From IMG/VR virus record IMGVR_UViG_3300020046_010243, positions 1 through 64,000 of that record: DNA of 64,000 nucleotides; one strand, given 5' to 3'. Origin of the DNA: a virus (lineage: Duplodnaviria > Caudoviricetes). Every line of letters starts with the position of its first letter. The first letter of the stretch is position 1. Made by a program: the position numbers and the translations under genes. Positions 41,368 to 63,078 of this stretch are shown piece by piece. The notes beneath the pieces are model-generated. The model saw only the letters and a program-made list of their open reading frames with translations. It searched no databases and was not told where the DNA came from.

Positions 41368-41378
41368 ATGTGGGTATC

Positions 41379-42146
41379 TCAGAAATTCGGAAATGGTGCA
41401 GTGGGCACGGCATAGTTCGTCGGACCATACCGGCACACTCCCTTAGTGACCCGAAAATCATCAGCATAGCCAACCAACGCCTCACCGTATGCATCTTGCC
41501 CGCAATAGAGTTGGCCGGTGGCCCCCGTCAGTGCCCCGAAGTTCCATGAGCCGATATAGTTGCCGTCTACGTGCAGGTACCAGTTCCGGAGAGTAGAGGC
41601 TACGGCGGCACCTTCTTGACAAAAAGAAATAAAATGCCAAGTAGCTGCACTACAAACCCCGTTGGCGCTAGTTATCCTGTAGCTGGAATCAGCAAAAAGA
41701 CTGACCTGCCCCAGTGAACGACATCGGACAATCGGCGACCCATCGTTCCATGCGAAGCAAACATTGGTGTCGCGCAGCGTATCGAACCAAAACCAGCCCT
41801 CAAGTGTATGCGCCAAGGTCCCAAAGCCGTAGTCAGCGATATTGGCAAGGTTCTGCGCACCGGAAGAAGTGTTCGGGGATCTAAGCGATGCGCCGCCCCA
41901 CTTGCTTTGCGTGGTGGAGATGGTGGCGGAACCGAGAACCGTGAGCGTGTTGCCGCGGGGGCACGAGTTAGTTAAAGTCGTGGAGCCATTCGATCCGTCA
42001 AAGTGCGCCATCTGAACGACGGAGGAAAAGTTTGGGTCGCCCCCGCCGCCACCTCGGTACGGATCAATAGTGAAAAAGCCTCGCTGCTGACGGCGCAAAG
42101 GTCGCGTAATGATCCTGCGATCCATCGTCAGTATCCGATTAGACAT
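41379..42146 (-). CDS. LamG/concanavalin-like tail fiber or receptor-binding protein
   Basis: HFDG.NGST, SKWGGASL, TLEGWFW, WHFI, GYADDFRVTKGV.RY...P.APF. Confidence 0.85.
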   Translation of the reverse strand: MSNRILTMDRRIITRPLRRQQRGFFTIDPYRGGGGGDPNFSSVVQMAHFDGSNGSTTLTNSCPRGNTLTVLGSATISTTQSKWGGASLRSPNTSSGAQNLANIADYGFGTLAHTLEGWFWFDTLRDTNVCFAWNDGSPIVRCRSLGQVSLFADSSYRITSANGVCSAATWHFISFCQEGAAVASTLRNWYLHVDGNYIGSWNFGALTGATGQLYCGQDAYGEALVGYADDFRVTKGVCRYGPTNYAVPTAPFPNF

Positions 42147-45100
42147 ACCACTAGCCCCTTTGCATTGCCGCCGACCGCATCGATGTCAACGGTGATCTCA
42201 GCATCATCGGCCAGCGACGCATCCGAAATTACCGCAGCGGTTGCGGCGGTAGTGCTGGTCAACTCGCCCCCGTCGATAGTGAGCTTAGTAGAGAGAATCG
42301 AACTGCCGCCTTCATTGATATCGACCGTGATACCTGAGACGGGACTGCCGGTGTCTGCTGTGGCGAGGGAGCAGCGCACCGCGGTCAGAGTCATCGCATG
42401 CGGCATACGGAAGACCGCCTTGCGGGTTCCCGGGGTCAGCGCAGTTGAAAGATCCGAGCAAGCGAACTGGATTACTTTCTTGATGCTCGGATTCGGGTAG
42501 CTACCTACGAGGTCTCCTCCCGCGCTCCCCGCTACCGCGAGCGACCACTCCCCGCACTCATTGAGGAAGTAGGTAGGGTCGCACCCAGGCGCATGCGGCG
42601 AAGGCACCAGACCAGGCGTCAGGACATTCGGGGAGCCGGTCGTGTTCTGTCCGTAGACCGGGAGATTTCCTGCAACGGTCTCGTAATAAGTCGTCGTCGC
42701 AATTCCGGTATTCGTGAACTCAATCGCGGATGCTGAAGAGAGCGCGGCGCCAAAGGTCACCGCCTTGTAGAGGAAAGGCTGGTTCAGTTCCGATTCAGGC
42801 GCATCGACGTTGACGAAGGGCACGAGGCAGAAGAGATCGCCCGCACCATGCCCAGTCGTGCCCGTGCCGAAACGCCCGCGCAGGAAGCCTCTCAGCAGAT
42901 ATGTCTCCGGCCCGATCAGGATAGCATCTCGAAACTGCAGCAGTTCCCATTGAATGACCGCAGGTGAGCCGACATAGCCTCTACTGATCGCGCAAAGGTT
43001 CCCGCCGTTCAGCAGCGCTTCCTCGCTGATGCTTTGCAGCGAGCCAAGTCGGGACGAGACGATCAAACATATCTCGGATTCGTCGATGACATCGCTACCG
43101 CTATGCGATGGGAGCGCGCCCGAGACTACCGGTGAACCCCCGGATGTCGTAGTCTGCCCGATTACTGTTGCAGAGGAAGTCGAGGCTACCGAGGAGTAGG
43201 TTGAGCCACCATCGATTGATTTGTATAGAGTCGCACCCGTCCATGCGCCCGCTACTGACGCCGGGTACATCGCAGCATAGAACCCGAAGGGCGCATGCGA
43301 CTGCGAAAGGATCGGGATATCGAGGAGGATCAGTCCAGTGGGCGCGAGGAGTCCTACGGGCGGTTGCTCAGCGAAACCGCCTCCGGTAGCGCCCGGTGCG
43401 CTTTGCGTGTAGAGGTCTGCGGCAGCAAGCACGCCGGTAAACTTCAGCACGCCGCCAGGGGCGAGGGATTTTGTCAGGATGCGAATTTCGCGCGACTGGA
43501 TGAGCACGATGTCGCACGGCACGAGTCGGTCCCACTTGCGAGTGAGAGACCACTCGAAGGTTTCGCGCTCGACTACCGCCGATGCAAGGAGGGCCGAGAC
43601 TTTTCGCGCGGCGTCTTGATCGGTGAGACCCACTGCTACTTCGATGGAGACATCCTGCTGCGATAGCGCGGACCGGCGCTCTTCGCGCTGCACTCCGGGT
43701 TGGTAGTCGGCCTCGATGTTGATGTAGGTCAGCGAGAGCGAGCGCGGGATCGTCTCTTCGCGCGCGCGAACGCAGAGCAGCGGATCCGGCGACTCGTCAC
43801 CAAACTCTCTCGCGCAGAGGTCGGCATCGGGGATTGCAATCGCGGTACCTAGCCCGAGCTTTCGGAAGACTATCTGGTCATCGCATTCGACTGCACTGAA
43901 AAAGTAGATGGGGCGTAGCGATGCAATCGCATTGCGCACCGTCATGTTCGATGCGATAGCGAACCATGGGACCTCATCATTCTCGAGTTCGACTACATCA
44001 TACTGGCTGGGAGAGCCCGCCAGAGAAGTCATGTTCGAGAGATCGGCTACGATGGTCGCGAGAGACTCGCCGGTGGGCGGCGGACGGAGCGAAATGATTC
44101 CATCATTGACGAGTACCAGCGGGGAATTTTCCAGCAATGAGACGTCACCAATGTACCCGGCCCCACCGTGGCCAACCGCCCCGATATAGGTCGCGGTCAG
44201 ATCATCGTTCAGGTAGAATGTGCCAAGTTGCTTGAATCCGGTGTTGCCCATATCGCAGGCAAGAATCAGGTCACCCTCATCCGTCTCATAGACGGTGAAT
44301 AGGAAGCCGTTGATGATGGCGCGCGCTGCGTTCTCTGCGCTCAGGTCCCAGACACGGCTCACCGTCAACCCCGGGGCGTCGAACTCAGTCAACTCTTCCG
44401 CGTGGCCATCCCAGAGGTACACCCGGTCAGGCGTGTTCGATGTAGCGATGACGAAATCCGACATGGAAGCGTTGCCGCCGCTCCCGTCCGCAAGCCCAAG
44501 ATCATAGGTGGCGATATATGGGCAAATAAGGCACTGGCCTGACATCGCAATAACTCGATCCGGCGCATAGTGACTATGGATATTTGCATGACCATTGATC
44601 GTGCTGCCTGACAGGAAGTATGCATAATCGGCATAGTAAACAGCGGATTGACCTGCGACCGCATCACCGCTGCTGCCATTGCCGTTGTCGATGCCCTCTG
44701 CGCCGCCGTGCTCAAAGGTGCTGAGCACTGCGCCGTCGCTGACTCCAAGGAAGTTCTGCAACGGCATCGTGAATGTCGTGCTGATGTAGCGGACGCTGCG
44801 CTTGCTCTCATCCTCTACGCCATGGATGCTGAAGTGACGCACCGTCAGGTCGGTGTAAGGCTTGCTGACGTCGTCATAGTCGGCAACCTGAACATCGCCC
44901 GCGACATACTGCACCGAGCGCAGCCGACCGGCGCTGTCGCCTATCGGCTCAAAAATGGAGACCCGCCAGGGGAACTCGCCGACTTCCGTGTATACCTCGA
45001 ACTCATACTGCGGGATCCGGTTGCCGAAGTCAGTCAAGTATTGATCGGTGAAGACGGCATGCGCGAACCCATTGTATGCCGGGACATTCCCAACGCCATG

Positions 45101-45568: not shown

Positions 45569-45999
45569 TAAGCAACTCCCCTGAACCGATACGCTCGCAA
45601 AACCTTCGCTCCGGCGACAGCGATGCCATTCTCGGCCACGAACCCCACTGACTGGTAGGCATGAATGACGTAGCCGGGCTTGCTTATCATCGCAAAGTGC
45701 TGCGGGAAGCGACGAAACGCCATCACCAGCACATCGCTCTCGCGCGCGAGCGAGAGATCTATGCGGTCCATGAACCGCTCGCAGGAAGCATAGAGAAACT
45801 CCGGGCGCGGAAGGCGACCATACGAATGCATCGCAGGATCTGCGCGCCATTCGGCGGCTCCCGGTAGCCCTAGCGCCAATGCGCTCATCCCGAGCAATCC
45901 CAAGCAGTCGACGCCGAGCCCCTTTACTCGAGCCTGATGCACCCAAGGCGTCCACATCCAGGTGCGAGCTTCCTCGATCAGGAGAGACCGGCTAGTCAT
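45568..45999 (-). CDS. NlpC/P60 peptidase (tail-associated)
   Basis: ARTW..TPWVHQAR.KG.GVDC.G, PQHFA, IHA. Confidence 0.9.
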   Translation of the reverse strand: MTSRSLLIEEARTWMWTPWVHQARVKGLGVDCLGLLGMSALALGLPGAAEWRADPAMHSYGRLPRPEFLYASCERFMDRIDLSLARESDVLVMAFRRFPQHFAMISKPGYVIHAYQSVGFVAENGIAVAGAKVLRAYRFRGVA

Positions 46000-46855
46000 T
46001 GTGCCTGCCGATCTGCACCAGCGCATCGTTGCCGCGCAACCAAGGTTCCCCATTGAAGCGTCGACCGTTGCCGAATGTCTCGACGCAATCCTCGATGAAG
46101 CGGCCGCGGCAGCCGCGCATGATCGAGTAGGAGTCGCCGGTCACATCATACGGGACCGGGCTGAGAAGTTCAAGCTCCCCTACGGTATAGGTCTTGACCT
46201 CAAAGGAGAGGTTGACTGCATCGCCGCTGGTGAAAGTGATGGTGCCCCGGTCGAAGGTGCCTGCATCTTCGGTTCGATCATTCACCGTCAGGACGAAGCG
46301 ATTCGTGCTGACCCCATCGACTACTCCGGTGAAAGTATATACCGGCGACCCGGCACCCAAGACGACTCCGCACTTCTCATCACCGAGCACATTGCGGCAC
46401 CCCGCCTGGGTGGGTTCGCCGATACTGGTGCTGTAGGCGTCCATCATGCCGATGAGTTCGGCGATGAACATCTGCCTGCCCGTGCGCACTTCACCGAGCC
46501 TGCCCGCGCGTAGCTTGTTCTTCCCGGCAGCCGGGTTCGCCCAACTCACCATGAACATTCGGAACTGCGCATAGTCCCACCGCCCCGCGCGCAGATCATC
46601 GGCGGTCAGGCCTGCCTGCGAGAGCAGCGCGTCGACCTGCACGTCATCGGGACCCATATCGCCGCCGGTAGCAACGTCAGTCGGGGTGAAGCTCGACCCG
46701 GGTCGATACTCGAGCCCATCGACTGTCAGCATCTTGCGGTTGGTCGTGAAGCCATAGACGTTGCCGTCGCGGCGTTCGATGCGGATGCAGGTCGCGAGTC
46801 GCGCCGACGAACGCGACATTTCGGTTTGCAAAGCAAGCGGGATCACCTTGCTCAT
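45992..46855 (-). CDS. DUF2163/BR0599-like tail hub protein
   Basis: RRDG..YGFT, DLRAGRWD.A, C...LGD..C, GC......C...FGN..RF.GEP. Confidence 0.9.
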   Translation of the reverse strand: MSKVIPLALQTEMSRSSARLATCIRIERRDGNVYGFTTNRKMLTVDGLEYRPGSSFTPTDVATGGDMGPDDVQVDALLSQAGLTADDLRAGRWDYAQFRMFMVSWANPAAGKNKLRAGRLGEVRTGRQMFIAELIGMMDAYSTSIGEPTQAGCRNVLGDEKCGVVLGAGSPVYTFTGVVDGVSTNRFVLTVNDRTEDAGTFDRGTITFTSGDAVNLSFEVKTYTVGELELLSPVPYDVTGDSYSIMRGCRGRFIEDCVETFGNGRRFNGEPWLRGNDALVQIGRHND

Positions 46856-47427
46856 ACTTCTTCTCCAGTCACTTCGATGATTTCGATGTCGCGCCAGCCG
46901 ACGATCAAGCCCTCGCGCCCTCGGTTGATGACCTGCGCTTTCATGGGGTCGTTGTTCAAGCGGCACCAGCAATCGAACTCGCCATACCAAGTCGTGCCGC
47001 TAGTCGCGATCCCGGTAGCATAGTCGAGCCCTACGGCGTTCGTGGTGATGGTCCCCTGCACCGGCTTGGTAATCACCCGATCGTAGGTGTAGGGGCCGTA
47101 GGTGTAGCGCTTGACCATTTGCTTGCCGACCGGGCTACCTTCGCTATCAATGAAGAAGCCTTCCCCGGAGTAGCACTCGAAGTCGACCCAGTCCTTGAAG
47201 CGGAAGGTATTCGCCATGCCTGCGACGTTGCGGAAGAAGGAGAGCAGAGGCTGCCAGTCGCCGTATGCGCGCGCCTCATGACTCACCGTCCATTCGCCGC
47301 GCTCGAGTTCCCACTCTTGCGTGCGCGACTCGGCTCCGCTCGCTACGGTTGCAATGCTGGTCTTGAATCGGGGTCCGCCGACCGCACCGAAACTGACCTT
47401 CTCGGGGAACCGGATATCCAGATCCAT
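46852..47427 (-). CDS. DUF2460-like distal tail protein
   Basis: RFP...S.GA.GGP.F.T.I...SG.E.R, FRFKDW.D. Confidence 0.9.
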   Translation of the reverse strand: MDLDIRFPEKVSFGAVGGPRFKTSIATVASGAESRTQEWELERGEWTVSHEARAYGDWQPLLSFFRNVAGMANTFRFKDWVDFECYSGEGFFIDSEGSPVGKQMVKRYTYGPYTYDRVITKPVQGTITTNAVGLDYATGIATSGTTWYGEFDCWCRLNNDPMKAQVINRGREGLIVGWRDIEIIEVTGEEV

Positions 47428-47428
47428 A

Positions 47429-49645: not shown

Positions 49646-49648
49646 GCG

Positions 49649-50013
49649 CTACACCGCCTTCGCTTTGCGCTTGCGCTTCAACCCGAGAACCCGCACATTC
49701 TTGCCGCCGATTCCCGCAAAAGCCTCCGCGGCGATCTTGCCGGATGCAACTGAATTGGTCGGGGCTTCGGGCTTCGGCATCAGGTCAACGAGGAAATCCT
49801 CGAGCGTGTAATCGGATGCGCCGCCCATTGCCTGAGCGACCACTAGGCAGACCAGAGCCAACTGCAAATGCGTGCGGCGAGAGGGGAGCCCGACGGTGCG
49901 CTGATACTTCTCCCACCGCGAGAACTCTCGGGACGACATGCGCACCGAAAGCTCCCGCACCGTCATGCCCATCTCTAGCGCCAGATCGTGCAGGAGGATC
50001 TGGCGCTTCGTCA
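49649..50013 (-). CDS. tail assembly chaperone, -1 frameshift extension (gpT-like)
   Basis: -1 frame continues KLTKRQILLHDLALEMGMTVREL..MSSREF..W. Confidence 0.8.
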
Positions 50014-50322
50014 GTTTCCCGGCGTATCCTCCGCGATGGCTGCACTCAGCAACTTCCAGGGCTGCCGGGCGAGCAATGCGACATCTTCCGGGTCGTCGCA
50101 GTTGAAGAGCAAGACGCCTTCCGCATCGCAGAGAACCCGCGCCGCTGCGCGCGCGATGCGGTGCTTGTTCTTCTTGTCGGCGGTATCTTCGGTCTGGTCT
50201 TCGATCTCCGAGACAGTGACATCGCGGATGTAGACCTCGCCCCACTTCGGGATGGTGCGCTTGCGCGGAGGCTCCGCGGCAGTCGCTCGCATCGCGGCGA
50301 TCAGTTCATCGCGGGTCGTCAT
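50011..50322 (-). CDS. tail assembly chaperone (gpG-like)
   Basis: follows the major tail gene; ends in the slippery heptamer. Confidence 0.85.
   Translation of the reverse strand: MTTRDELIAAMRATAAEPPRKRTIPKWGEVYIRDVTVSEIEDQTEDTADKKNKHRIARAAARVLCDAEGVLLFNCDDPEDVALLARQPWKLLSAAIAEDTPGN
50014..50020 (-). other. programmed -1 frameshift heptamer G-GGA-AAC
   Basis: CCG GGA AAC TGA; X XXY YYZ pattern right before the stop. Confidence 0.85.
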
Positions 50323-50323
50323 C

Positions 50324-50983
50324 TTACGCCTCGAAGACGAAGACTTCGCCGGTGAGCTTGATCGAAGCCGAGGCCGTCCAGACCCCATTGACCGCGCCCT
50401 GGAAGGAGGTCGAGGTCACGGTGCCGATCATGATGACGATGCCGCCGGTGCCCGGGAAGATGATCTTGAAGGCGACCTGGTCACCGCTGAGCTTCGCCGC
50501 GCGCAGCGCAGCCTGCACCGCCTCGTTGCCGGCCCAGTTGAAGTCGAGTTGCAGAGTGCCCGAATCGCTCAGGCCTTGTTCGAACTCCTTCGCGGTCGAG
50601 CAGATCGTGGTGACTTCGATCGTATCGGCGCCGGCATCCTGTTGGTTCGCGCCGGTCAGTTCGCAGAAGGTCGTGAACGTGACGGGCGAGGCGGTCGCGA
50701 GCGGGCTACCGCCAGCGAAGGCAGTGCCCCCGGTCGTATCGCCGCCCGCGAGTTCGAATGTGCCCGACGCTTCGTTGTCGACCGGGTAGAGGTTGCCCTC
50801 CAAGCCGGTGGGGGTAACGAGGTCATTGATGCGGACCACGTCGCCGGTGACGAAGCCGTGCGCGGTCGACGAGACGACCGGCGGTTCCGCCAGGGTGACG
50901 CCCGTGATGGTCTTCGCGACTCCGAAGCCCGTCTGGACCTTGAACTGCGAACCATTGAATTTGTAGCGCTTGCCCGAAGACAT
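50324..50983 (-). CDS. major tail tube protein
   Basis: AKTITG.T.A.P, IEVTT, GLSDSG; position before the chaperone. Confidence 0.9.
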   Translation of the reverse strand: MSSGKRYKFNGSQFKVQTGFGVAKTITGVTLAEPPVVSSTAHGFVTGDVVRINDLVTPTGLEGNLYPVDNEASGTFELAGGDTTGGTAFAGGSPLATASPVTFTTFCELTGANQQDAGADTIEVTTICSTAKEFEQGLSDSGTLQLDFNWAGNEAVQAALRAAKLSGDQVAFKIIFPGTGGIVIMIGTVTSTSFQGAVNGVWTASASIKLTGEVFVFEA

Positions 50984-51028
50984 GATCTACTCCTTGCGTT
51001 GTTTGCGGGGTTTACAGGGGTTGCGGTA

Positions 51029-51412
51029 TTACGGTGAACCGGAGACGCTTGAAGGGCTGATGAAATACTCGAGCGTCACTCGGTAAGTCTTGGTCTGCTC
51101 ATCGAACTCTTGTCCGCCACTTGGTTGACGAGTCGCCGGCAGCGAAAATCCTAGCATAGCGGCGATGACTTGGTCGCGCAAGGTGATGACCGCCCCATGC
51201 GTCAACGCAACCAGATCGAGTTGCACTGAACTATCATCGGTGTCGACAGTCGTGCTGCCGCAGATATCGTTGGTATCGGAAGAGGTCAGCACCGTATAGC
51301 GAATCGCGGGCCAGCGCGGCAGTTCTCCGTCGGGCTGGATGAAGGTCAGCGGGTAGCACCGGTTGTTGACCAGAGGCCCCAAGGTAGTGAACAGAAGTCC
51401 TTCCAGCATCAC
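51029..51412 (-). CDS. tail terminator (DUF3168-like)
   Basis: RCYP, P.IRY, VQLD; gene order. Confidence 0.8.
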   Translation of the reverse strand: MMLEGLLFTTLGPLVNNRCYPLTFIQPDGELPRWPAIRYTVLTSSDTNDICGSTTVDTDDSSVQLDLVALTHGAVITLRDQVIAAMLGFSLPATRQPSGGQEFDEQTKTYRVTLEYFISPSSVSGSP

Positions 51413-51855: not shown

Positions 51856-51857
51856 AG

Positions 51858-52208
51858 CTACCCCTCGTTCGTCCCTGACTTGCAGCGAAGCTCCAGCATG
51901 CCGCGCGAGAGTCCCGGTTCGATCGGACCCACGATATTGTAGATGACCGGCGGCCGCCCATCCGCTTGGTGCACGATGCGCGACTTCGCACTCAGCGCGG
52001 CGAGCGCAGGTGCCCAGCGGACAGTGATCTTCGTATCGACCTCAGAGAGCAACCCGCCGCCGATCTGCGACTCGCGGGCGCTCTGCGGCAGGATCTCAGC
52101 ATAGACGGTTGCGAAAGTCTGCCAGGAAGTCTCGGGTGCGCCGGTGCTCGACTGCGCATCGGTCGCGGTCTGGATCAAGACGCGATGAGAGAGGCGCGCG
52201 ATTCTCAT
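51858..52208 (-). CDS. head closure / head-tail adaptor
   Basis: RLSHRV.IQ, G.P...W..FATVYAEI.P. Confidence 0.9.
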   Translation of the reverse strand: MRIARLSHRVLIQTATDAQSSTGAPETSWQTFATVYAEILPQSARESQIGGGLLSEVDTKITVRWAPALAALSAKSRIVHQADGRPPVIYNIVGPIEPGLSRGMLELRCKSGTNEG

Positions 52209-52930
52209 GCGATCGGCATCCGGATGCGGTAACGCTCGACCAGCGCCTGGATCCCCAGGGGCAGACGACTCACCATGTTGCCCACATTGATCTCCTCCCG
52301 GTTCTCATAGAGAGCACCGAGCGTCAACTTCATCGCGGCGATCAGTGAGTATGGGATGATGTTGTCGAGCGGAGAAGCGCCCGGTGCATCGTAGCCGACG
52401 CTCATGCGGATGCGGATCGACCCTGGCTGGTCGCGCGAAGAGGGCCAGTCACTCGAACCATATGCAGGATAGAGCACGGGCACCTCGCAGGCATTGTCGA
52501 GGTAGAAGGCGCTCGGATCCATCACCGCATCATTCCCGTCGCTGTCTTTATAGGTCACGGAAATGATGCCATTGACCGGCGCGGTCATCAGCGAGATCCC
52601 GAAGTCGGGCATCCATCGCGACATGCCCGAGAAGCAGCGCCCCGAAAGCTCGACCGTCTGCGGAGCGAGCGCGAGTCCGCTCACGAACTCGATATATTCG
52701 CGCGAGGCAGGGATGAGCGCCTCGATCAGTTCCTGGTCGAGGTAGGTCGCAGGGCTGCCGTATGCATCGATGCGCAAGTGCTGCGCGGCTTGGTCGAGAG
52801 TGATCGGCTCGATGCTCGGCGGAGTGATGACTCGAAGCGACTTGCGGTCGCGCAGGTCGCGCTGCCATCCCGCGATGCAGGTGATGTAGCTGTTGGCGAG
52901 ACTGCGCCCATAGTTCAGGTAGCTGGTCAT
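52205..52930 (-). CDS. head-tail connector (gp6-like) with N-terminal extension
   Basis: EPITL.QA..HLRID, D..LI..LI.A.R, LY.NRE. Confidence 0.9.
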   Translation of the reverse strand: MTSYLNYGRSLANSYITCIAGWQRDLRDRKSLRVITPPSIEPITLDQAAQHLRIDAYGSPATYLDQELIEALIPASREYIEFVSGLALAPQTVELSGRCFSGMSRWMPDFGISLMTAPVNGIISVTYKDSDGNDAVMDPSAFYLDNACEVPVLYPAYGSSDWPSSRDQPGSIRIRMSVGYDAPGASPLDNIIPYSLIAAMKLTLGALYENREEINVGNMVSRLPLGIQALVERYRIRMPIA

Positions 52931-53613
52931 CCGAGGCACTCCTTCTTCGCTTGCTCCCAGATGTAAGCATGTTCGCATCCGGGTTTGAGTTCGGGGGTGC
53001 CCAGCGTGTAGTGGGCGATGATCGGTCGTTCGGGCTTGGGCTGCATTCCGACGAGCCAGTTATACTCGCCGGGAAGCGCACCGATCTCATTGTCGGCCAG
53101 CCAGCGAAACGCATGCAGATCGCGACCGGGCCATTGGTTGAGCATCTGGAGATTCAAGCGACGATTGGCGGGATGGTCGCAGTTGAAGAGCATCACCGAC
53201 GACCAAAGCTTGCGATGGTAGTTAGTCTGGATCTGGTTGTCCATCTTGAAGCCGCCGACTTGCCCGACCTCATGCTTCACCACGCAGACCGCATAGTCAT
53301 CGCGCGCATACCGAAGCATGCTGCGCGGATCCTCAAGAAAGATCACGTCCCCGTCGACGAAGAGCGCCCACCCGCTATGCGCGAGCAGGAGCGTTGCAAA
53401 GCGGGCGATGGCGAAGCGAGTCGACTGCGGAGCTTCGCTGTTGAGATCGAAAGCCTGCCCGCCTCGCGTATCCATCGGGCGGTAAATGATGCCCGATGCG
53501 CGCAGTCGGTCTTCGTAAAGACCGTGCACCTCGCAACCGAAGCGCAGCGCAGACGCGACCGCGAGGTTGAATGAGACCGCCTCGCGCTCCTCGTAACCGA
53601 CAAAGACTCTCAT
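52927..53613 (-). CDS. GT-A glycosyltransferase (GT8-like)
   Basis: VFVGY..RE, ST.F..ARF, FVDGD, VVKH, RKLWSSVMLFN, WL, YNWLVG, HYTLGTP. Confidence 0.85.
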   Translation of the reverse strand: MRVFVGYEEREAVSFNLAVASALRFGCEVHGLYEDRLRASGIIYRPMDTRGGQAFDLNSEAPQSTRFAIARFATLLLAHSGWALFVDGDVIFLEDPRSMLRYARDDYAVCVVKHEVGQVGGFKMDNQIQTNYHRKLWSSVMLFNCDHPANRRLNLQMLNQWPGRDLHAFRWLADNEIGALPGEYNWLVGMQPKPERPIIAHYTLGTPELKPGCEHAYIWEQAKKECLG

Positions 53614-53624
53614 GCCTGCTTACC

Positions 53625-54290
53625 TCACCCCGGGACCATGACAAAGTCGCCTGACATCTTCTCGACGCATTCGTAGCCGAGCGACTGCAACCACTCGACT
53701 GCGCCCAACTCAGGTAAACCGAACTGCTGTGCGCGCCCTGGCTTTTGTTCGACGATGATAGTGGGCAAGTCTCGCGCTATTGTAGCCTCTCCTCCGCGCA
53801 ATGCAAAGTATTCGTAGCCTTCGCAGTCGAGTTTGATGAAGTCGACAGACTGCAGATTGAAGGTGTCGAGACGGCAGAGCGGGATATCGCCCTCGCCCCC
53901 TACTTTCGAGTCCCCTGACGAGGATGGGGCTGTCTCAATACGCACGCTGCCCTCGTGGTCGCCGAGCGCGCAGGCATGCAAGACCGCGCGCGAATAGCCG
54001 AGGTTGACCAGATCCGGTTCGATGACATTCTGCTGAAAGCAGTCGCGGTGCGCTGCGACAGGCTCGAATGCATGCACAGTCTTGAACTGCTTGACCAACT
54101 GCATCGACCAGAGACCGATATGACCCCCGACATCGACAGCAGTGCGAAAGTCGCGACAGTGCCGCAAGGCGGCACGGAGTTTCTTGATCTGGTAGGTCCC
54201 CTTGCCGTCGACCCATTCTCCCGACTTATTCATCCAGTCGAGCAGGTGCACTTCGCTGTCCGGAAACCAGATCCCCTGGTGCTGCTTCAT
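53625..54290 (-). CDS. FkbM-family SAM methyltransferase
   Basis: DVGGHIGLWS, AFEP, ALGD, DFIKLDCEGYE. Confidence 0.9.
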   Translation of the reverse strand: MKQHQGIWFPDSEVHLLDWMNKSGEWVDGKGTYQIKKLRAALRHCRDFRTAVDVGGHIGLWSMQLVKQFKTVHAFEPVAAHRDCFQQNVIEPDLVNLGYSRAVLHACALGDHEGSVRIETAPSSSGDSKVGGEGDIPLCRLDTFNLQSVDFIKLDCEGYEYFALRGGEATIARDLPTIIVEQKPGRAQQFGLPELGAVEWLQSLGYECVEKMSGDFVMVPG

Positions 54291-55021
54291 GAAAAGACCT
54301 CCTGGTGAAGTGCTGCGTGAACTTCGTCAACGGTGATGGCGAGCATGGCGGCCTTACACCCTGCGCACGCCTGCCGGTTGCCGCACCATCCGGTAGCATG
54401 CCGAATGTTGCGCTGGTTCTGGTAGCCGGTGAACTCGGGCGAGATAAACTCGGACCAAAGCACGACCGAAGGAATCGAAAGCGCAGCCGCAGCATGGTGC
54501 AATGCGCCTTCGCCGCCGACGAACCCGATGCTAGAGGTCAGGATTGCAAGAGCTTCCCGGAAGGCGGTCTCCTTGAACTCGACACCGCGCAGTCGCTTCG
54601 ACTCAAGCGAACCGACCTGAATATAGCGACCTGGGTCTCGGTCGACCAACTGCTGCCATCGCTCGAACGGCCATGCTTTGTTGCCCCCGACGACCTTGGT
54701 ATTCGGTTCGATCAAGACCTTGCCCGCGAAGGGCGCAGCCTTCGCAAGCTCGTCCCGGTGCAGGTAGAGACTACCCGGTTCGATGTTCCAGTGCCTCCAG
54801 ACCCACCGCTCGGCGGTCTTGCCCGAGATATATGGGCGCACCCCCGAGGCGTTGAGCAAGGTAGCAGCGCCTCGCGTCTCGCGGGTGATGATCGGGTTGT
54901 ACTCGAAGACCGGTGACCATTGCGCGCGCCCGCGCAGATCCATCACCACGACTTGCTTCCCGGTAGCCTGGTGAAGTTGACGCACCTGCGCGGTCGCCAT
55001 AATCCAGTCACCGAGACCCAT
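54287..55021 (-). CDS. GT9-like (heptosyltransferase-type) GT-B glycosyltransferase
   Basis: MGLGDWIMAT, KAWPFERW, FVGGEGALHHAAAAL..PSVVLW. Confidence 0.75.
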   Translation of the reverse strand: MGLGDWIMATAQVRQLHQATGKQVVVMDLRGRAQWSPVFEYNPIITRETRGAATLLNASGVRPYISGKTAERWVWRHWNIEPGSLYLHRDELAKAAPFAGKVLIEPNTKVVGGNKAWPFERWQQLVDRDPGRYIQVGSLESKRLRGVEFKETAFREALAILTSSIGFVGGEGALHHAAAALSIPSVVLWSEFISPEFTGYQNQRNIRHATGWCGNRQACAGCKAAMLAITVDEVHAALHQEVFS

Positions 55022-55616
55022 TCGCACCTCCTTTGCGCCGGTAGTACCAGACCACCTCGTCGAAGGGTCCGAGTTCCTTGCGCTCGACCACGAAACCCGC
55101 CTCCTCCATGACCGCCCCGATATCGAAGGGACGGTTGTTGGTTCGAGCATCGACGATGACATCGCGCCCGCTAGGCGAAAGCCGCATGACGCAGAGATCA
55201 TCGCAGATCGAAGCGAAGTGACTCGCGGCGAAGATAGGATCCTGGAGCTTGTGCAAGAGAGCGAGGAGCAGCACGATATCGTAATGCTCTTGCGGGCGAT
55301 ACTGATCCGCATCCGCCTGGATGAAAGTGCAGTCAGAAAAGCCTCGCTCAGCGGCGAGGCGATTCCCGATCTTGATGTGCCCCGGCACGATCTCAGCGCC
55401 GAGGACCTTGCGCGCGCCCAACCGCGCAGCCTCGAGCGAGATCAGTCCTTCTGCGCAACCGATGTCGAGGATGCTCTTGCCTTTCACCTCAGCGAAGAGA
55501 GGCTCCAGCCCGCGCAGTTGTTGTTCGAGCGTTCGATCCCCGGGTCGCTCAGGAAGATCGAACCAGCCTCGGGTTCGCATCCGCTCAGCCTTGCGCTCGC
55601 GCGCGCGATTAGCCAC
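55008..55616 (-). CDS. class I SAM-dependent methyltransferase
   Basis: KSILDIGCAEG, YDIVLLLALLHK; GTG start with GGAG RBS. Confidence 0.85.
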   Translation of the reverse strand: MANRARERKAERMRTRGWFDLPERPGDRTLEQQLRGLEPLFAEVKGKSILDIGCAEGLISLEAARLGARKVLGAEIVPGHIKIGNRLAAERGFSDCTFIQADADQYRPQEHYDIVLLLALLHKLQDPIFAASHFASICDDLCVMRLSPSGRDVIVDARTNNRPFDIGAVMEEAGFVVERKELGPFDEVVWYYRRKGGANGSR

Positions 55617-56394
55617 GTTGCTCTCCTTGCCGCGACAATGCATCCCATGCGATGCCGCGCCGCATTTCATCAAGAGTCCATTGGTTATCTGCGAGCACGC
55701 CTGCCCAGTTGCGGATGTATGCGGGCCCGCAGAAAATTGGAGTCTCCATTCGCTCCAGCGCAAGGTTTGCTACGGGAGCAGCAGCGCATTGCTTGCTCAC
55801 GAATGCGGGAACTCCGGAGAGCACTGCGGTAATCGCAGCCGCCGAGGACCAGGTGACCAGCGCATGTGCGCCTTCCAGATCCTCTCCGAGGGTGCTCGCA
55901 AGTTTCGCTTTGTCTCCGGACCAAAGCCGCAACCGCACCGACCGCTTGCTGATACCGCCGAGCGCCTTCATAGTATCCGACGCCCAGTTCCCCTGGTAGC
56001 CGACAATCGTCTCCATGAATGAATCCGACTGCGGGCAGACGACGATGTGACTGCCTCGATTGCGAAGCGGTCGATTGTCGATCCCGAGATCATCGAAACG
56101 CTGCTTGTTCGAGACGCCGAAGCCGGTATGCTGGAGTCGGTTCTTCGTGATGCGGAAGTACTGCTGCCGCGCATCGTCGAAGTAGCTATTGTCGCAGTAG
56201 TAGAAGTCTTGCTGCGCATTCGCTCGAACTGCCTTCCAGAGGTGCGCATTGCTCGCATCGACGCCGTAGAAGAAGGCGGGGCCGGGCTGCAGTTGCTCGG
56301 CGTCGACCAGGATCTGAGCACCGCAGCCTGCGGCGAAAGCCTTGCAGATGTCGAGCGACTTTTGCTTTCCGCTTACGGGGTAGCAGTAGATCAC
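55609..56394 (-). CDS. KpsC/KpsS-like (capsule synthesis) GT-B protein, paralog 2
   Basis: VRLR, AHALVTWSSAAAITAVLSGVP, NQWTLDEM..G. Confidence 0.55.
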   Translation of the reverse strand: MIYCYPVSGKQKSLDICKAFAAGCGAQILVDAEQLQPGPAFFYGVDASNAHLWKAVRANAQQDFYYCDNSYFDDARQQYFRITKNRLQHTGFGVSNKQRFDDLGIDNRPLRNRGSHIVVCPQSDSFMETIVGYQGNWASDTMKALGGISKRSVRLRLWSGDKAKLASTLGEDLEGAHALVTWSSAAAITAVLSGVPAFVSKQCAAAPVANLALERMETPIFCGPAYIRNWAGVLADNQWTLDEMRRGIAWDALSRQGEQRG

Positions 56395-57179
56395 TTTGCA
56401 CCTCCCGCGCGCGCGATCTCGAGGAAGCGCATGAACGGCTCACCCTTGTCGAGTTCAGCGATGCTCCATTGCGCCCACGCCATTTGCCGCATCGCATGGA
56501 GACGCTTCTCGTCGTCGTAAAGCAGCGGCGCGTCGAGCCGGGAGGCTGCGTTCGCGCAGATCCAGAAGGGCGCATCGAACCGAACCGGGATGCCGAGAGT
56601 CAGTGCCTTGACCCCCGAGGATGACGACCAGATCACGCAGTCGCGCGCGCCCGCGAGATCAGTCTCCAATGGGATCGCGGGCATATGGTTCCCGGGATGC
56701 AGTCGCAGTTGCGTGGGGTTGCCTTGCTTCTGAAGTCGAGTCTGAGCAAGCTTGTGCCAATCGGGCGGGGATGCCATGTGCGGCGTCCCGATGCCGCGCT
56801 GCCCGCAAATCAGCGAGTAGCCTTCGCGCTTCACCCAGGGTTGGAGTTCGATGTTCAGCGCGGCGAAGCGCTCGGGGCCGCCTCCAGGCCAGATCCCGCT
56901 ACCGTTATGGCCGTGAATCGATAGCGCATAGAGTTGGTGCCCGGCGGCATCCTTGCCGAGGTAGCCGTTCTCGGCGACGATGACTGTACCCCCATTCTTC
57001 TCCCAGGCGTCTGCCATCGACCCGCTCGACCCGTACCGGTTCCAGATGATGAGGAAGTCTTCGGGATCGGCCGCCATGCCCTTTTCGATGAGCCGGAACC
57101 CCGCTGCGCGCAGACCGCCGATGAAAGCTTCGCGGCGGTAGTGCGGTTCTGCTCGGATCATGCACAATGCGTTTTTCAT
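56391..57179 (-). CDS. KpsC/KpsS-like GT-B protein, paralog 1
   Basis: AENGYL, RLHPG, VIWSSSSGVKALTLGIP, AQWSIAEL..G. Confidence 0.55.
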   Translation of the reverse strand: MKNALCMIRAEPHYRREAFIGGLRAAGFRLIEKGMAADPEDFLIIWNRYGSSGSMADAWEKNGGTVIVAENGYLGKDAAGHQLYALSIHGHNGSGIWPGGGPERFAALNIELQPWVKREGYSLICGQRGIGTPHMASPPDWHKLAQTRLQKQGNPTQLRLHPGNHMPAIPLETDLAGARDCVIWSSSSGVKALTLGIPVRFDAPFWICANAASRLDAPLLYDDEKRLHAMRQMAWAQWSIAELDKGEPFMRFLEIARAGGAK

Positions 57180-58000
57180 TTGGCCAACTCCTCAGCCAGA
57201 TCGCCGCGAGGGAAGGAGTTGAGCGCCGAGTCGGGAGAGCAGTTGACCACCTCGACCCCTTCGGCTTTGAGGTCGGCAGCGAAGACTGCGAAGTTCTCCT
57301 TCCAGGCGCGATGGGGCAGCGAGTTGCTGAGCGGCGAGGGATGGTCCGGATGCCAATGCTTCCCTTTGAGATCGACTCCGATCAGGAGCATCCGGCGCGT
57401 GCCCGCAAGATACGCGAGGTTCATCGCTTGCACCGAGCTATTCGCTCCCTGTGCGATGTAGGACGGATCCTTGCTCAGGTTCGAGGTGCGCCGACTGGCG
57501 ATGTAGTTGAGCGAGAACTGCTTTGCTGCGAGTTCGTCTTGCGTCCAGAGCGCAGCGGGCGGGAAGATTTCGCACGCCTCGGCATAGTAGGTCTTCTTTG
57601 TCTCGGGATCCTCGGCGCGCCACCATGCACCATCGCAGGCGTAGAGAATATCCGCGAAGGGCGCGAGCCGAAAGCTCGTGTTGATAACTATGACCCGCGC
57701 ATCGCCTCGGGTCTCGCGCCAGTAGCGTACGGTCTCGCATTGAGTCTCGGAAAGACTCGGACCGCTCGCAACAACCACTACGGTGCAGCCATGCCAAGGC
57801 GGGAAGCGCTGCTCGGGAACCTGCGCGACCGCAGGCGCAGGCACTGGAGGAGGCGCGGTCTTGCTTGCGGGGATGAACTGCTCCGCATAGCCCGACGCGA
57901 TCCAATCCAGCGCCTTCTCGCGGTTTTCTTCGATGAACTGATCTCCCCGACGAATCGGATTGACCGATGTCGGAAGATCCTTTAGTGCACGCAACAGCAT
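57176..58000 (-). CDS. Maf/DUF115/GT42-like Rossmann protein (nonulosonate-transferase-like)
   Basis: VVASGPSL, VINTSF, YACD..WW, GANS.VQAMNLAY.AG..R.LLIGVD. Confidence 0.6.
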   Translation of the reverse strand: MLLRALKDLPTSVNPIRRGDQFIEENREKALDWIASGYAEQFIPASKTAPPPVPAPAVAQVPEQRFPPWHGCTVVVVASGPSLSETQCETVRYWRETRGDARVIVINTSFRLAPFADILYACDGAWWRAEDPETKKTYYAEACEIFPPAALWTQDELAAKQFSLNYIASRRTSNLSKDPSYIAQGANSSVQAMNLAYLAGTRRMLLIGVDLKGKHWHPDHPSPLSNSLPHRAWKENFAVFAADLKAEGVEVVNCSPDSALNSFPRGDLAEELAK

Positions 58001-58031
58001 AGCATCTCCTTTGGGCCGGTGATGCCCAGGG

Positions 58032-59678: not shown

Positions 59679-59687
59679 GACCTCGTG

Positions 59688-60170
59688 TCAGTCAAGCAAC
59701 CCAGAGTGCAGTGCTGAAATGAGCAGGGCGATTATATCCTGATCGTCTCGGAGAATGCGCGCGCGGTTAGAAGGCGGGTAGTAAAAATGATATCCCCCAC
59801 CAGGCATCGGAGTGATGATCGGAGGTTCCGGCGGTTCGATAGGCGCACCGATACCCATGCCGAATCGAACGAAAAGCGAAGCCGACTGCACCGTCCCAAG
59901 CGTGATGTAGCTGCCGCTTTGCGTGGCCGCAGAAGGCGCAAGGCCGAGCATTGCGGCCTTGCTTGCGCTCTGTCCATAACCAAAGGTGATATAGCTGCCG
60001 CCTTGAGCTGTCGCGGAAGGCACAAGGCCGAGCATTGCGGCCTTGCTTGCGCTCTGCCCATAGCCAAAGGTGATATAGCTTCCGCCCTCCCCCGGGTCAT
60101 CGACAAAAGCATGCCACCACGGGTTTGCGAACTCCGCGCTGTCGAACCAAGGTTGTTGAAACCAAACCAC
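59688..60170 (-). CDS. virion-associated protein with internal 28-aa repeat
   Basis: GGSYITFGYGQSASKAAMLGL x2 plus a degenerate third copy. Confidence 0.7.
   Translation of the reverse strand: MVWFQQPWFDSAEFANPWWHAFVDDPGEGGSYITFGYGQSASKAAMLGLVPSATAQGGSYITFGYGQSASKAAMLGLAPSAATQSGSYITLGTVQSASLFVRFGMGIGAPIEPPEPPIITPMPGGGYHFYYPPSNRARILRDDQDIIALLISALHSGLLD
59941..60086. repeat. 84-bp-period direct repeat inside 59688..60170
   Basis: AGGCCGAGCATTGCGGCCTTGCTTGCGCTCTG... at 59941 and 60025. Confidence 0.9.
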
Positions 60171-60174
60171 ACCA

Positions 60175-61032
60175 TTAGCTCCCGTCCAGAACCGTGCCGC
60201 TTCGCTCGCCTTCGGCAGTCGCAGTTCCGGCTATGCGATCGGTGCTGCCGTCGACACTCTTGAACGTGATTGCATATGTCCCGTTACCATTATCTACTAC
60301 TTCGCAGTTCCCCGCGATGCCCGCGAGAATGACTCGAAGTACTTCGCTCGCAGTCATGCCTGACTCGATGAGAGCATCCCAAGGGTTCGCCCCCGCCCCT
60401 AGATCGTTCAACTTCTCGCCCATAGACCCGGCTGCATTGTTCGCAGAAGCAACCGCAGACCAGACTGACTGACCAACGTTTGCGGTGCTGAGTCCGGTCC
60501 CGGTCACGACGATATCAATCGCCATGTCGCCGAAAGCAGCAATGGTGGCGTCGAGATCCCCCGCACCAAGCAGGTTGACCACCATGTTGCCGAGTCCCGA
60601 CAAGCTCGCTTCCAGGTCGCCCGCCCCGGTGAAGTCGACGCTTGCATTCAAGCGACCTTGAATCGTTGCGGTCAGCGCGCCCGAACCGCCCAGCGCGCAG
60701 AGCATCGACACTACTAGCGCGGCGGTCGCATCGAAGTCACTTGCTCCGGTGAGGTCTATGCTCATCGGATACGTCGCGATCAAGCTCCCGGCTATGCTGC
60801 CGATACCATCGGTCCGCATCGACATTTCACTCGCGAGGATCGGCGGCTGGTAGGAGTTCTGGAGATAATGACCCGGAGGATTCGCGACGGTCTGTAGAAC
60901 TTCGGATGCGCCGTCCGGGTAGATGTATTTCTCGAACTGGTAGTAGCTATCCCACTGCCCGGGCAGCAGTGCCTGCGCGCTCCCCTCGAACATCCCCGAG
61001 AAGCCGATCCGCAAGAAGTTCGAGAGAAGCAT
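60175..61032 (-). CDS. Gly/Ala/Ser/Thr-rich putative virion fiber or decoration protein
   Basis: beta-helix-like repeats (L.GAG.L.A); late-operon position. Confidence 0.7.
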   Translation of the reverse strand: MLLSNFLRIGFSGMFEGSAQALLPGQWDSYYQFEKYIYPDGASEVLQTVANPPGHYLQNSYQPPILASEMSMRTDGIGSIAGSLIATYPMSIDLTGASDFDATAALVVSMLCALGGSGALTATIQGRLNASVDFTGAGDLEASLSGLGNMVVNLLGAGDLDATIAAFGDMAIDIVVTGTGLSTANVGQSVWSAVASANNAAGSMGEKLNDLGAGANPWDALIESGMTASEVLRVILAGIAGNCEVVDNGNGTYAITFKSVDGSTDRIAGTATAEGERSGTVLDGS

Positions 61033-62219
61033 TACGACGTCCAGCCGAAATTCAGGTGCGCTTCGATGAGCGAGTTCGCCGGAGTCGCAACGCCTGACTT
61101 GCCGATCATGTAGAGGGCGGCACCATCGTAGACCCGCACGCCGCCATCGAAGCGCCAGGGGACGCTCTGTCCGAGGACTTGCAGCGGCACCGGCTCGCCG
61201 AGTCGTTTGAAGAGCGCGACGGAGTACATGCCCGAGGTGTAGGTCGCGCTGTTGCGGATGGTCTGGATAGAGCGGATGCCGCTATCGGCTCCTTGCAGGG
61301 GAATCGCGGGGCCGAACTTCCCCGCGCCGGTCGCGCCGGTATAGAGAATGTGCGAGGCAGTCGCAGCGGTCTTCCCGATCGGCGCGCTAGGCGACGTCGG
61401 GGTGGCGCGGCTTGCGGTCCCGGCGCCGTTCTGGTAGCCGAGAGTCAGTTGCGGCGTACCCGCACCAAGGGCGGTTGCCGAAGGATTGAAGAACATCGCG
61501 TCGACGCCGACCCCATCCGAGTAGCGCGGCAGCCGAACATCGATGACATTGGTTCCGGTCCCGGCATCGGTATAGGCAATCGCCGTCCCCGCGATGGCAT
61601 TCGTGCGGCTGGTAGCGAAGCGACTCGTGGTCGCCGATACCCGGATCGTATAGTAGTCGACGCCCGCGGTAAGCCCGGTAGGCAGCGCGCCTCCTGAATT
61701 GCGGAACCTCACCTTCGAGAGGCTTTGGACGTCGTTGGTGTAAGTTCCGAGCAGACCCGACGATGACGAGAAGGTAGTAGTCTCTCCGCCGCCTATCCCC
61801 GATCCCGTATCGTAGGGCCAGATGACGGTCTGCGCGGTCGTGGTGGTGACTGAAGTCACCCGGATGAAACCGAGCAGGTCGATCAGTTGCACCCAGAAGG
61901 GAACCACGGTTGCCGCCGCGGTGTTCACCATCGCGGTCTCGAGGATCTTGTAGTCGTCGCCATCGGCTCCGACATCGCCTCCGTGATAGAGGCTACCTGC
62001 GCTCGCAGTCTGGTCACTCACCGACTGGAAGAGGAGGTTGGTGCCCGCATCGAAGATCGCATCGGCCGAGGGGTAGCCGCCGCCCCGGAAGAGAGTATGC
62101 CATTCATTCGCAACGGCGGCGGCGGTCGGGTTGAACTGCTTGGACATGACGGTTTGGAAGCGCTTGCCGAGCGCCGACATCGAGTTCAGGCGATTGTCGA
62201 GTCCGGTGAATCCACCCAT
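61032..62219 (-). CDS. putative virion structural protein, paralog A (with inserted beta domain)
   Basis: LPRYSDGVGV, Y.NGAG.A.R, GPAIPL..DSGIRS. Confidence 0.8.
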   Translation of the reverse strand: MGGFTGLDNRLNSMSALGKRFQTVMSKQFNPTAAAVANEWHTLFRGGGYPSADAIFDAGTNLLFQSVSDQTASAGSLYHGGDVGADGDDYKILETAMVNTAAATVVPFWVQLIDLLGFIRVTSVTTTTAQTVIWPYDTGSGIGGGETTTFSSSSGLLGTYTNDVQSLSKVRFRNSGGALPTGLTAGVDYYTIRVSATTSRFATSRTNAIAGTAIAYTDAGTGTNVIDVRLPRYSDGVGVDAMFFNPSATALGAGTPQLTLGYQNGAGTASRATPTSPSAPIGKTAATASHILYTGATGAGKFGPAIPLQGADSGIRSIQTIRNSATYTSGMYSVALFKRLGEPVPLQVLGQSVPWRFDGGVRVYDGAALYMIGKSGVATPANSLIEAHLNFGWTS

Positions 62220-62220
62220 G

Positions 62221-63078
62221 TTATTTCCTCACCCATAAGGTTCGAAGTTGACCTTCAATGATGGCGCCCGACAGGGAGCCGTTCGGCTTACAAATCATCG
62301 ACAGATATGCATCGTCTTCGATCTGCTCAAACATTCCAAGATGCTGCCAGAAGGACCAGCCCGATGGGTTAGTGTTTTCGTAGCCCGCAAAAGGCGCGAG
62401 AGGCTTGACGAGCACTACTGCGAGGTTCCCGGCGTCGGCAGAGAAAAACTCGATGCTCTCGACGCTGCGCACCCCACCATCGCCTTGCGCTAGCGGCACG
62501 AAGGGACCGGGACAGCCTGCTTTAGTAGGCGCGGAAGTCGCAACCGTACCGAGGAGCGCCTGGGTATTGATGGTCATGATCGGGGACTGCCTGCCTGCTA
62601 CGCCCGCAGAGTTCGTATACGTAACGCGGCAGGTACCGCCGCCCACATATGGGAACTGCTCGACCAGCATGATCTGCACACCTTCGCCGCTCGAGTAGCG
62701 GGGCAGCGTGACTGCATTCGTCATCGACTGCACATCCTCCATCGGGATCAGAGGATAGTACATCAGGTAGTCGGCGATGATGAGCGAAAGAGGCATCGCA
62801 GTGGCGGTGACCGATAGCACGCATGCGTAGTCGAGAAACTTGCGGTAGTCGGAGCCCTTGTCTTCGCCATGATCCAGCCCGCCGTCGACGCTCCGGCGCA
62901 GCGCTCGCGCGGTATTCGGAGACCCATCAGTGAAGTAATTCGCGGCAGGGTAGCGACCCGACATCGTGAGGTCGACGAAGATGCCTGCTCCGGTTGCGAT
63001 GGATGGAACCTTGACCCAGGGGCGGGCGAGGACTCGTCCTTCATCCGGAGCCGAAAACAATTTCGCATGCGTCAGCAC
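62221..63078 (-). CDS. putative virion structural protein, paralog B
   Basis: LPRYSSGEGV, Y.NSAG.AGR, GPFVPL..DGGVRS. Confidence 0.8.
   Translation of the reverse strand: MLTHAKLFSAPDEGRVLARPWVKVPSIATGAGIFVDLTMSGRYPAANYFTDGSPNTARALRRSVDGGLDHGEDKGSDYRKFLDYACVLSVTATAMPLSLIIADYLMYYPLIPMEDVQSMTNAVTLPRYSSGEGVQIMLVEQFPYVGGGTCRVTYTNSAGVAGRQSPIMTINTQALLGTVATSAPTKAGCPGPFVPLAQGDGGVRSVESIEFFSADAGNLAVVLVKPLAPFAGYENTNPSGWSFWQHLGMFEQIEDDAYLSMICKPNGSLSGAIIEGQLRTLWVRK

Follow-up and report, generated by a model that had tools for sequence, protein, structure and literature searches.

Why would a single tripeptide recur across the neck and tail proteins of a phage? This question was raised by IMG/VR record IMGVR_UViG_3300020046_010243, a 76.9 kb contig (~94% complete) of a siphophage with a guanine-plus-cytosine (G+C) content of ~61%. 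Its first 64 kb, a stretch of 64,000 nucleotides (nt), were analyzed here and are called the window. A sequence-only reading of the window had noticed Gly-Ser-Pro (GSP) in many virion proteins and had proposed it as the acceptor for an adjacent glycosyltransferase cassette. This cassette comprises six genes, A to F, at 52927-58000, which lie between the head genes and the head-tail connector and are encoded on the minus strand, as the late genes are. Herein, our comparisons indicate that GSP is a real, selected motif found at many positions in unrelated folds. We consider it probable that GSP is an O-glycosylation sequon on neck and tail proteins, served by the linked cassette.

All 12 GSP sites of the sequence-only reading were recovered where it had placed them, each encoded on the minus strand. 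A 13th site, which it had missed, was found at nt 40918-40926, and three further sites lie past the window end, at genome positions 64534, 64606, and 67893. The Ser residues are encoded by all six Ser codons (TCG, TCT, TCA, TCC, AGT, and AGC), so GSP is not a DNA repeat, and its description as a protein-level motif held. The tail module (40.5-53 kb, 4,498 amino acids (aa)) contained 12 GSP versus 1.42 expected from per-protein composition (Poisson p 3.9e-8). GSP ranked first of 8,000 tripeptides there, with a p value of ~3e-4 after Bonferroni correction. With a first-order (dipeptide) model the expectation rose to 2.68, and GSP was still at rank 1 (p 2.5e-5). Across the whole structural set (12,097 residues), 16 GSP were observed versus 4.3 expected (rank 3), and the turn-forming tripeptides DGS and DPG were likewise enriched.

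The non-structural half of the gene set contained 2 GSP versus 3.0 expected; the open reading frame (ORF) that holds one of these, at 26242-27762, is doubtful. As had been stated earlier, GSP was absent from the 738-aa tape measure and both chaperone ORFs. It was also absent from the protease-capsid fusion, portal, and terminase of this phage. The earlier wording "exterior virion proteins" is therefore too broad, and "neck, tail, and fibre proteins" is the better term; the strong enrichment was found in neck and tail proteins only.

Replication in relatives provided the next line of evidence. Relatives were collected as ~200 loci from scans with the tail tube protein and the cassette genes, and the sequence of three relatives was extended, namely G001 (to 30 kb), G006 (to 65 of 67 kb), and G007. 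These three each carry a full cassette and a neck/tail module at 35-75% identity to this phage. The neck/tail proteins of G006 contained 12 GSP versus 1.1 expected, and its other 14,085 aa contained 0 versus 3.3 expected; some of the G006 sites sit in fibre proteins with no homolog in the window. Sites of the window phage remained GSP at 8 of 11 positions in G001 and at 8 of 12 in G006, with one additional change to Gly-Thr-Pro (GTP) in G006. As a background, 24% (G001) and 20% (G006) of tripeptide windows were conserved, and the flanks of the sites (±6 residues) were 37-42% identical. These values indicate that the GSP sites are under purifying selection.

Homologs of the same neck/tail families were then pooled by cassette content, with "cassette-less" reserved for relatives whose locus shows the absence. 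Cassette-bearing relatives contained 107 GSP versus 9.6 expected, and no other tripeptide came close in enrichment, whereas cassette-less relatives contained 3 versus 3.0 expected. The idea that GSP insertions follow the cassette among homologs was borne out by this contrast. By family, observed and expected GSP were 26 and 1.9 in the connector, 11 and 0.6 in the terminator, 10 and 0.9 in the tail tube, 7 and 0.3 in the distal tail protein, 7 and 0.7 in the hub, and 29 and 3.0 in the tail tip. No GSP occurred in the tape measure, chaperones, terminase, portal, and enzymes A, E, and F of the homolog families. In the pooled homologs GTP, ASP, SSP, TSP, GSA, GSG, and GAP were near expectation, and DSP and NSP were enriched ~2-fold. 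Distinct GSP alignment positions numbered 29 in cassette-bearing and 2 in cassette-less relatives.

The placement of these sites agreed with the earlier remark that several copies resemble short loop insertions. In the tube, connector, distal tail, and hub proteins GSP lies in a short insertion, and in the terminator it forms a C-terminal extension; these GSP-bearing insertions and extensions are missing from cassette-less homologs. Gain and loss were mosaic, as L126 has the terminator site without the tube site, L132 shows the opposite, and L198 lacks the tube site with the other three present. There was no flanking consensus around GSP, only mild preferences for D at -3, small residues at -1, and T, A, or S at +1. 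Genes A and F were the cassette genes most consistently present alongside GSP sites. Enrichment, site conservation, insertion placement, restriction to neck and tail, and co-occurrence with the cassette in relatives were all computed directly. Table 1 lists the GSP-bearing proteins and the cassette genes.

Table 1. Positions in the window of the GSP-bearing proteins and of cassette genes A to F
Feature	Position (nt)	Strand	GSP site (residues; nt)	Assignment
175-aa ORF	40909..41436	-	five residues before C-terminus; 40918-40926	
255-aa distal fibre-like protein ("LamG fibre")	41379..42146	-	136-138; 41733-41741	
Tail tip / host-specificity protein, 1275 aa	42128..45955	-	five sites; 44009-44017, 43130-43138, 42962-42970, 42629-42637, 42341-42349	Pfam Phage-tail_3, Rcc01698_C
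Baseplate hub protein	45992..46990	-	214-216; 46343-46351	Pfam Phage_phiJL001_Gp84_N, Phage_BR0599
Distal tail protein	46852..47427	-	97-99; 47131-47139	DUF2460, gene transfer agent (GTA)-like; Pfam DUF2460 E 3e-34
Tail tube protein	50324..50983	-	92-94, in 4-6-residue loop insertion; 50702-50710	Pfam TTP families
Tail terminator / completion protein	51029..51412	-	last three residues; 51032-51040	Pfam Tail_completion_gp17
Head-tail connector	52205..52978	-	74-76, inside insertion; 52751-52759	gp6-like
Gene F, 228 aa	52927..53613	-		GT8-like GT-A glycosyltransferase, invariant D87-x-D89
Gene E, 221 aa	53625..54290	-		FkbM-family methyltransferase
Gene D	54287..55312	-		GT9 heptosyltransferase-like, conserved C-terminal Cys cluster
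Gene C, 261 aa	55609..56394	-		DUF6716-like putative glycosyltransferase
Gene B, 262 aa	56391..57179	-		putative glycosyltransferase, distant paralog of C
Gene A, 274 aa	57176..58000	-		sialyltransferase-like (GT42 / MptE-DUF115-like) glycosyltransferase
285-aa structural protein ("paralog B")	62221..63078	-	52-54; 62917-62925	

The individual proteins showed the same pattern to different degrees. The connector, which has a weak Pfam Phage_connect_1 match, carries a [GD]SP insertion in 17 cassette-bearing homologs and in zero cassette-less homologs, within a longer conserved context (GSPx-xHPDD). The terminator ends in the GSP extension in at least 10 cassette-bearing relatives and in none of the relatives with context-proven cassette absence. 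The tube insertion was found only in homologs that are cassette-bearing or of unknown context. The distal tail site is kept in eight relatives (cassette-bearing G001, L197, G006, L120, and L198; L195; and L201 and L209, of unknown context) and is missing from cassette-less relatives. The hub site is kept in cassette-bearing relatives, among them the distant L007 (33% identity). Of the five tail tip sites, G001 keeps three and G006 two to three, and relatives add GSP sites of their own. The 255-aa fibre-like protein had no Pfam match and one usable homolog, the site of the 175-aa ORF is not kept in G001 or G006, and the site of the 285-aa protein is GTP, with Thr in place of Ser, in three relatives at 71-75% identity.

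Surface exposure was considered for one modelled site, that of the tail tube, which fell in a surface-type loop as the earlier proposal had anticipated. In the model, residues 92-94 lie in coil 79-96 of the N-terminal beta-barrel domain. The protein has two domains, this barrel (Foldseek: FCCH domain of ubiquitin E1) followed by a lambda gpV-like core, and phages T1 and FCWL1 have two-domain tube proteins of similar fold and architecture. The GSP-bearing barrel, a peripheral domain, probably faces outward.

In more distant cassette-bearing lineages, a GSP insertion occurs near the C-terminus of the capsid protein and is missing from gene-A-only phages. This insertion in the C-terminal region was seen among homologs in L188, L180, L078, L183, L132, L080, and L181. 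A second recurrent capsid site, WVGQGSP, was seen in G007, L116, and L132. The capsid of the window phage has neither site.

The cassette itself consists of four or five glycosyltransferase-like genes and an FkbM methyltransferase gene. The glycosyltransferase genes sit within or beside the structural (late) genes, as in Che8-type virion glycosylation systems. None of the products of A to F contains a 19-residue window with a Kyte-Doolittle score >1.5, i.e., a membrane-like segment. Gene A matched PHROG phrog_4603 "alpha-2,3-sialyltransferase" at E 1.8e-36 and Pfam MptE-like at 24.9 bits, under the cut-off of 34.6. Its AlphaFold model (predicted local distance difference test score (pLDDT) 85) gave CstII/Cst-I as top Foldseek matches (probability 0.98-1.0, E 5e-4), with template modeling (TM) scores of just 0.3-0.45, a weak fold match; the gene A profile likewise reached CstII in the PDB weakly, at E 0.2. 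Homologs of A share a ~200-aa core alone, and the N-terminal 70 aa are restricted to close relatives. This N-terminal extension was tried as a marker of GSP-bearing phages and was rejected as inconsistent.

Gene B had no match in Pfam or PHROG. It aligns to the C family at 21% identity and is 39-73% identical across cassette-bearing phages. Gene C matched Pfam DUF6716 at E 1e-3, under the cut-off of that family, and the B/C family profile gave just insignificant KpsC matches (E 0.3) in the PDB. Gene D reached 22.2 bits against Pfam Glyco_transf_9 (PF01075, cut-off 22), its family profile found WaaC/WaaF (1psw, 2gt1) in the PDB (E 2-4e-6), with the match confined to the C-terminal half, and weak RfaF/heptosyltransferase I matches were found in NCBIfam. 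Homologs of D align only from residue ~98, where M98 is near-invariant, and the first 97 codons match no homolog; the true start is probably Met98, at ~nt 55021. The C-D interval (~600 nt) is a variable slot, with ~3 kb of extra genes there in G001 and G006. Gene E was assigned with margin by Pfam PF05050 (E 8e-15, 55.8 bits, cut-off 22.7), TIGR01444 (E 4.6e-19, 69.3 bits, cut-off 37.7), and a PHROG methyltransferase family (E 2.7e-26). Gene F had no Pfam match; in the PDB, its family profile matched WbbM and a GT8 enzyme (E 0.009-0.03), and its homologs in cultured phages carry the annotation nucleotide-diphospho-sugar transferase.

A selected motif that is restricted to the neck and tail exterior and found only together with soluble late glycosyltransferases is most simply accounted for by a Ser-directed modification made by the cassette. 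Three points are inferred from this pattern: modification of the Ser, a glycan as the modifying group, and a reader enzyme within the cassette. In this siphophage and its close metagenomic relatives, GSP would be a short acceptor tag of the neck and tail proteins. Enzymes A to F, predicted to be soluble and late-expressed, would act in the host cytoplasm, where they may start an O-linked oligosaccharide, probably a methylated one, on the Ser of GSP in exposed loops and C-terminal tails and then lengthen it. Connector, terminator, tube, distal tail, hub, tip, and fibres would all come to bear glycans in this way. The more specific proposal is that a soluble phage enzyme recognizes the bare G-S-P wherever it stands in an exposed loop or C-terminal tail and initiates an O-linked, methylated oligosaccharide at that point; it seems to us evenly balanced between right and wrong. 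That the coat is built from host lipopolysaccharide (LPS)-core precursors, with A of the CMP-ulosonic-acid (cytidine monophosphate-ulosonic acid) type and D of the heptosyltransferase type, is pure speculation and very doubtful.

Several observations weigh against this proposal. The trees of the tail tube, connector, and terminator are star-like, and only one independent contrast was well supported, that of L199 inside a cassette-less clade of the tail tube tree. The link between cassette and motif could therefore reflect one shared origin. Phylogenetically independent contrasts on the tail tube tree were dropped, as one supported pair gives no statistical power. Across 80 metagenomic loci (±10 kb of gene B), GSP was observed 50 times versus 31 expected; this is about the background ratio, as unrelated phage loci show GSP at ~1.5-2 times expectation. 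Having the cassette is not sufficient for GSP enrichment. A locus-level test of which cassette gene predicts GSP enrichment was also dropped, since the loci sample different genome regions and the result was too noisy. Among cultured phages, the cassette is carried only by giant Caulobacter phages (CcrSC, CcrBL9, CcrPW, CcrColossus, and kin). The neck and tail-tip proteins of cassette-bearing CcrSC contain no GSP, and GSP was unenriched both in CcrSC (5 versus 6.9 expected) and in phiCbK, which has no cassette (6 versus 5.0 expected). When an alternative sequon was sought in CcrSC and ten GSP-unenriched cassette-bearing metagenomic loci, nothing stood out.

The enzyme side adds to these difficulties. 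L007 retains GSP or GTP sites with only gene A visible on its 18-kb contig, and two other A-only phages have no GSP sites. For A, B, C, and D, family assignment is weak, with scores at or under the curated cut-offs. GSP sites also occur in L199 and L188, which lack C, D, and E, so D is unlikely to be the tag-reading enzyme. Thr rarely substitutes for Ser (GTP 6 versus 11.5 expected); such strictness is unusual for O-glycosylation, yet it is compatible with a strict enzyme. Taken together, the claim that GSP is the acceptor for the adjacent cassette is partly supported, by enrichment, tracking, loop placement, and conservation; it is limited by the GSP-free capsid of this phage, the many cassette-bearing phages without GSP enrichment, and the small number of independent contrasts.

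Other explanations of the same pattern were weighed on this evidence. One is chance, or an artefact of the composition of tail proteins that are rich in G+C and in Gly/Ser, spotted post hoc; it could draw on the ~1.5- to 2-fold excess of GSP over composition in unrelated phage loci and on the accompanying enrichment of DGS and DPG. The first rank among 8,000 tripeptides, which survived Bonferroni correction, and the independent replication in G006 and G001 speak against it, as does an 11-fold excess set beside 1.0-fold in cassette-less homologs of the same composition. Given this enrichment, the site-level conservation, and the contrast between cassette-bearing and cassette-less relatives, chance and composition are, on the sequences, effectively refuted. 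A selected linear motif with a non-glycan role, inherited in one lineage that happens to have the cassette, is unlikely but deserves more weight. GSP could act in docking, with an assembly factor or decoration protein as the common partner, or as a turn that lends stability to the inserted loops. On poorly resolved trees the phages with both cassette and GSP could be a single lineage, many other cassette-bearing phages show no GSP enrichment, and the connector site is embedded in its longer conserved motif. A docking or turn motif fits less well with at least 8 unrelated folds and 29 positions that include the extreme C-terminus of the terminator and share no flanking consensus, or with the absence of GSP from internal and non-virion proteins. 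GSP also recurs in the capsid insertion of other cassette-bearing lineages, and no candidate binding partner is known.

It is rather improbable that the Ser of GSP is modified in another way, by a host or unlinked phage enzyme, while the cassette serves, for example, host surface glycans. Phosphorylation of the proline-directed type, acylation, or phosphoglycosylation would suit the strong preference for Ser over Thr, and other phages have the cassette without GSP. Beside the structural genes, however, neither a kinase nor an acyltransferase was seen, and motif and cassette co-occur among homologs. The cassette enzymes also lack membrane-like or export features that would suit work on surface glycans. 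Glycosylation of GSP by the cassette thus remains our preferred reading.

This reading can be compared with established systems. Virion glycosylation by phage enzymes is established for mycobacteriophages Che8 and Rita (Freeman et al. 2023, Cell Host Microbe 31:1216, as summarised in PMC11256854), and glycans are reported on the major capsid protein. The likeness to the system proposed here lies in phage glycosyltransferase genes beside structural genes and in a glycan coat that arises by cytoplasmic modification of virion subunits. In that mycobacteriophage work the tail tube is reportedly glycosylated as well. To our knowledge, phage virion glycosylation has so far been established for a few mycobacteriophages only, and we know of no sequon for it. 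The system proposed here would differ from the Che8 type in that the capsid of this phage has no tag, the targets would be neck and tail proteins bearing a strict tripeptide, and the enzymes are of other families (GT42-like, GT9-like, GT8-like, and DUF6716-like).

Maf and FlmG, nonulosonic-acid O-glycosyltransferases of flagellin, offer another parallel: soluble and cytoplasmic, they put an ulosonic acid directly on Ser/Thr of a structural protein that is exposed at the surface, and they do so before it is assembled. The catalytic domain of Maf is similar to the sialyltransferase CstII, and Maf substrates have no conserved sequon (PMC11339370). The gene A model shares the resemblance to CstII, weakly. 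Maf proteins are much longer than 274 aa; gene A, at that length, differs in showing no flagellin-binding accessory domain of the Maf type. Short acceptor sequences in many unrelated proteins are familiar from PglB (D/E-X-N-X-S/T), PglL (WPAAASAP-type), and Bacteroidota (D-S/T-[AILVMT]). In those systems, however, membrane oligosaccharyltransferases work in the periplasm with lipid-linked glycans. Virion proteins are assembled in the cytoplasm, and the enzymes considered here have no membrane-like segment. We know of no bacterial glycosylation sequon that equals G-S-P. It is not among the bacterial sequons given in PMC11339370.

Gene D matches the C-terminal nucleotide-sugar half of the LPS heptosyltransferases WaaC/WaaF. 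Heptosyltransferase-type enzymes of the TibC/Aah family can O-glycosylate protein Ser, and gene D differs from them in that no similarity to TibC was detected in the PDB search. Full-text literature yielded no report of a GSP sequon, a phage O-glycosylation sequon, or tail glycosylation in such phages. Relative to Che8/Rita and Maf/FlmG, the novelty would lie in the targets, the enzyme families, and the strict tripeptide tag.

If this is correct, cytoplasmic O-glycosylation in bacteria would have in GSP its first sequon that is minimal and portable, and the phage tail would be glycan-coated. A strict tag and a soluble enzyme would explain how the phage aims a glycan coat at the tail exterior, and the coat could serve stability, shielding from proteases or antibodies, or adsorption. 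GSP would also offer glycoengineering a very small transplantable acceptor, as well as a bioinformatic marker for glycosylated phages in metagenomes.

The late genes on the minus strand start from the right end of the contig with the large terminase, the protease-major-capsid fusion, and the portal. Several large proteins without an assigned role follow, and after them come the six-gene sugar cassette, the connector, and the neck proteins. The series continues with the tail terminator, tail tube, chaperones, and tape measure, and ends with the GTA-like distal tail, hub, host-specificity, and small distal proteins. The terminase, protease-capsid fusion (667 aa, genome 72560-74563), and portal lie beyond the window at genome 71054-76381, with the capsid gene before the portal gene. 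The portal is separated from the remaining late genes by ~11 kb of large unannotated proteins (912, 775, 292, and 194 aa). Upstream of the cassette, collagen-like or "collagen-flanked surface repeat" segments were found at 60175-61032 of the window and at ~10.2-11.5 kb of G006, and the proteins there gave repeated matches to a 119-aa protein of genome 70711-71070. Their sequences suggest fibrous head or neck appendages.

No DNA-level similarity to cultured phages was found. Judged by the tail tube protein, Ralstonia phages (~30% identity) are the closest in culture, so no cultured member of the GSP clade was found. The close relatives L195, L197, L198, and L199 were binned in metagenome-assembled genomes labelled Coxiellaceae, Nitrososphaerota, Hydrogenedentota, and Ilumatobacteraceae. 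This scatter suggests that the phage contigs were mis-binned, so these four give no host information.

The giant Caulobacter phages, whose virion proteins are not enriched in GSP, are cultured systems in which the function of the cassette could be asked. In CcrSC (NC_048048.2 118481-122967; L214:19409-23895) the homologous cassette lies between tail fibre genes and the endolysin gene. Its content in these phages is A, B, two further genes, a methyltransferase gene, and one more gene. The same slot holds the cassette in CcrSC, BL9, PW, Colossus, C1, C2, J4, RB23, and BL47, and phiCbK has two small unrelated genes alone in it. Five viral contigs of ~37% G+C (L064, L067, L076, L049, and L073) carry a D-type GT9-like gene only. 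GSP appears in several of their downstream structural-looking proteins, for example in a recurrent C-terminal ...TTGSPTVTT..., with up to 5 GSP versus 1.0 expected per locus. The GSP motif may thus occur in unrelated low-G+C phages too.

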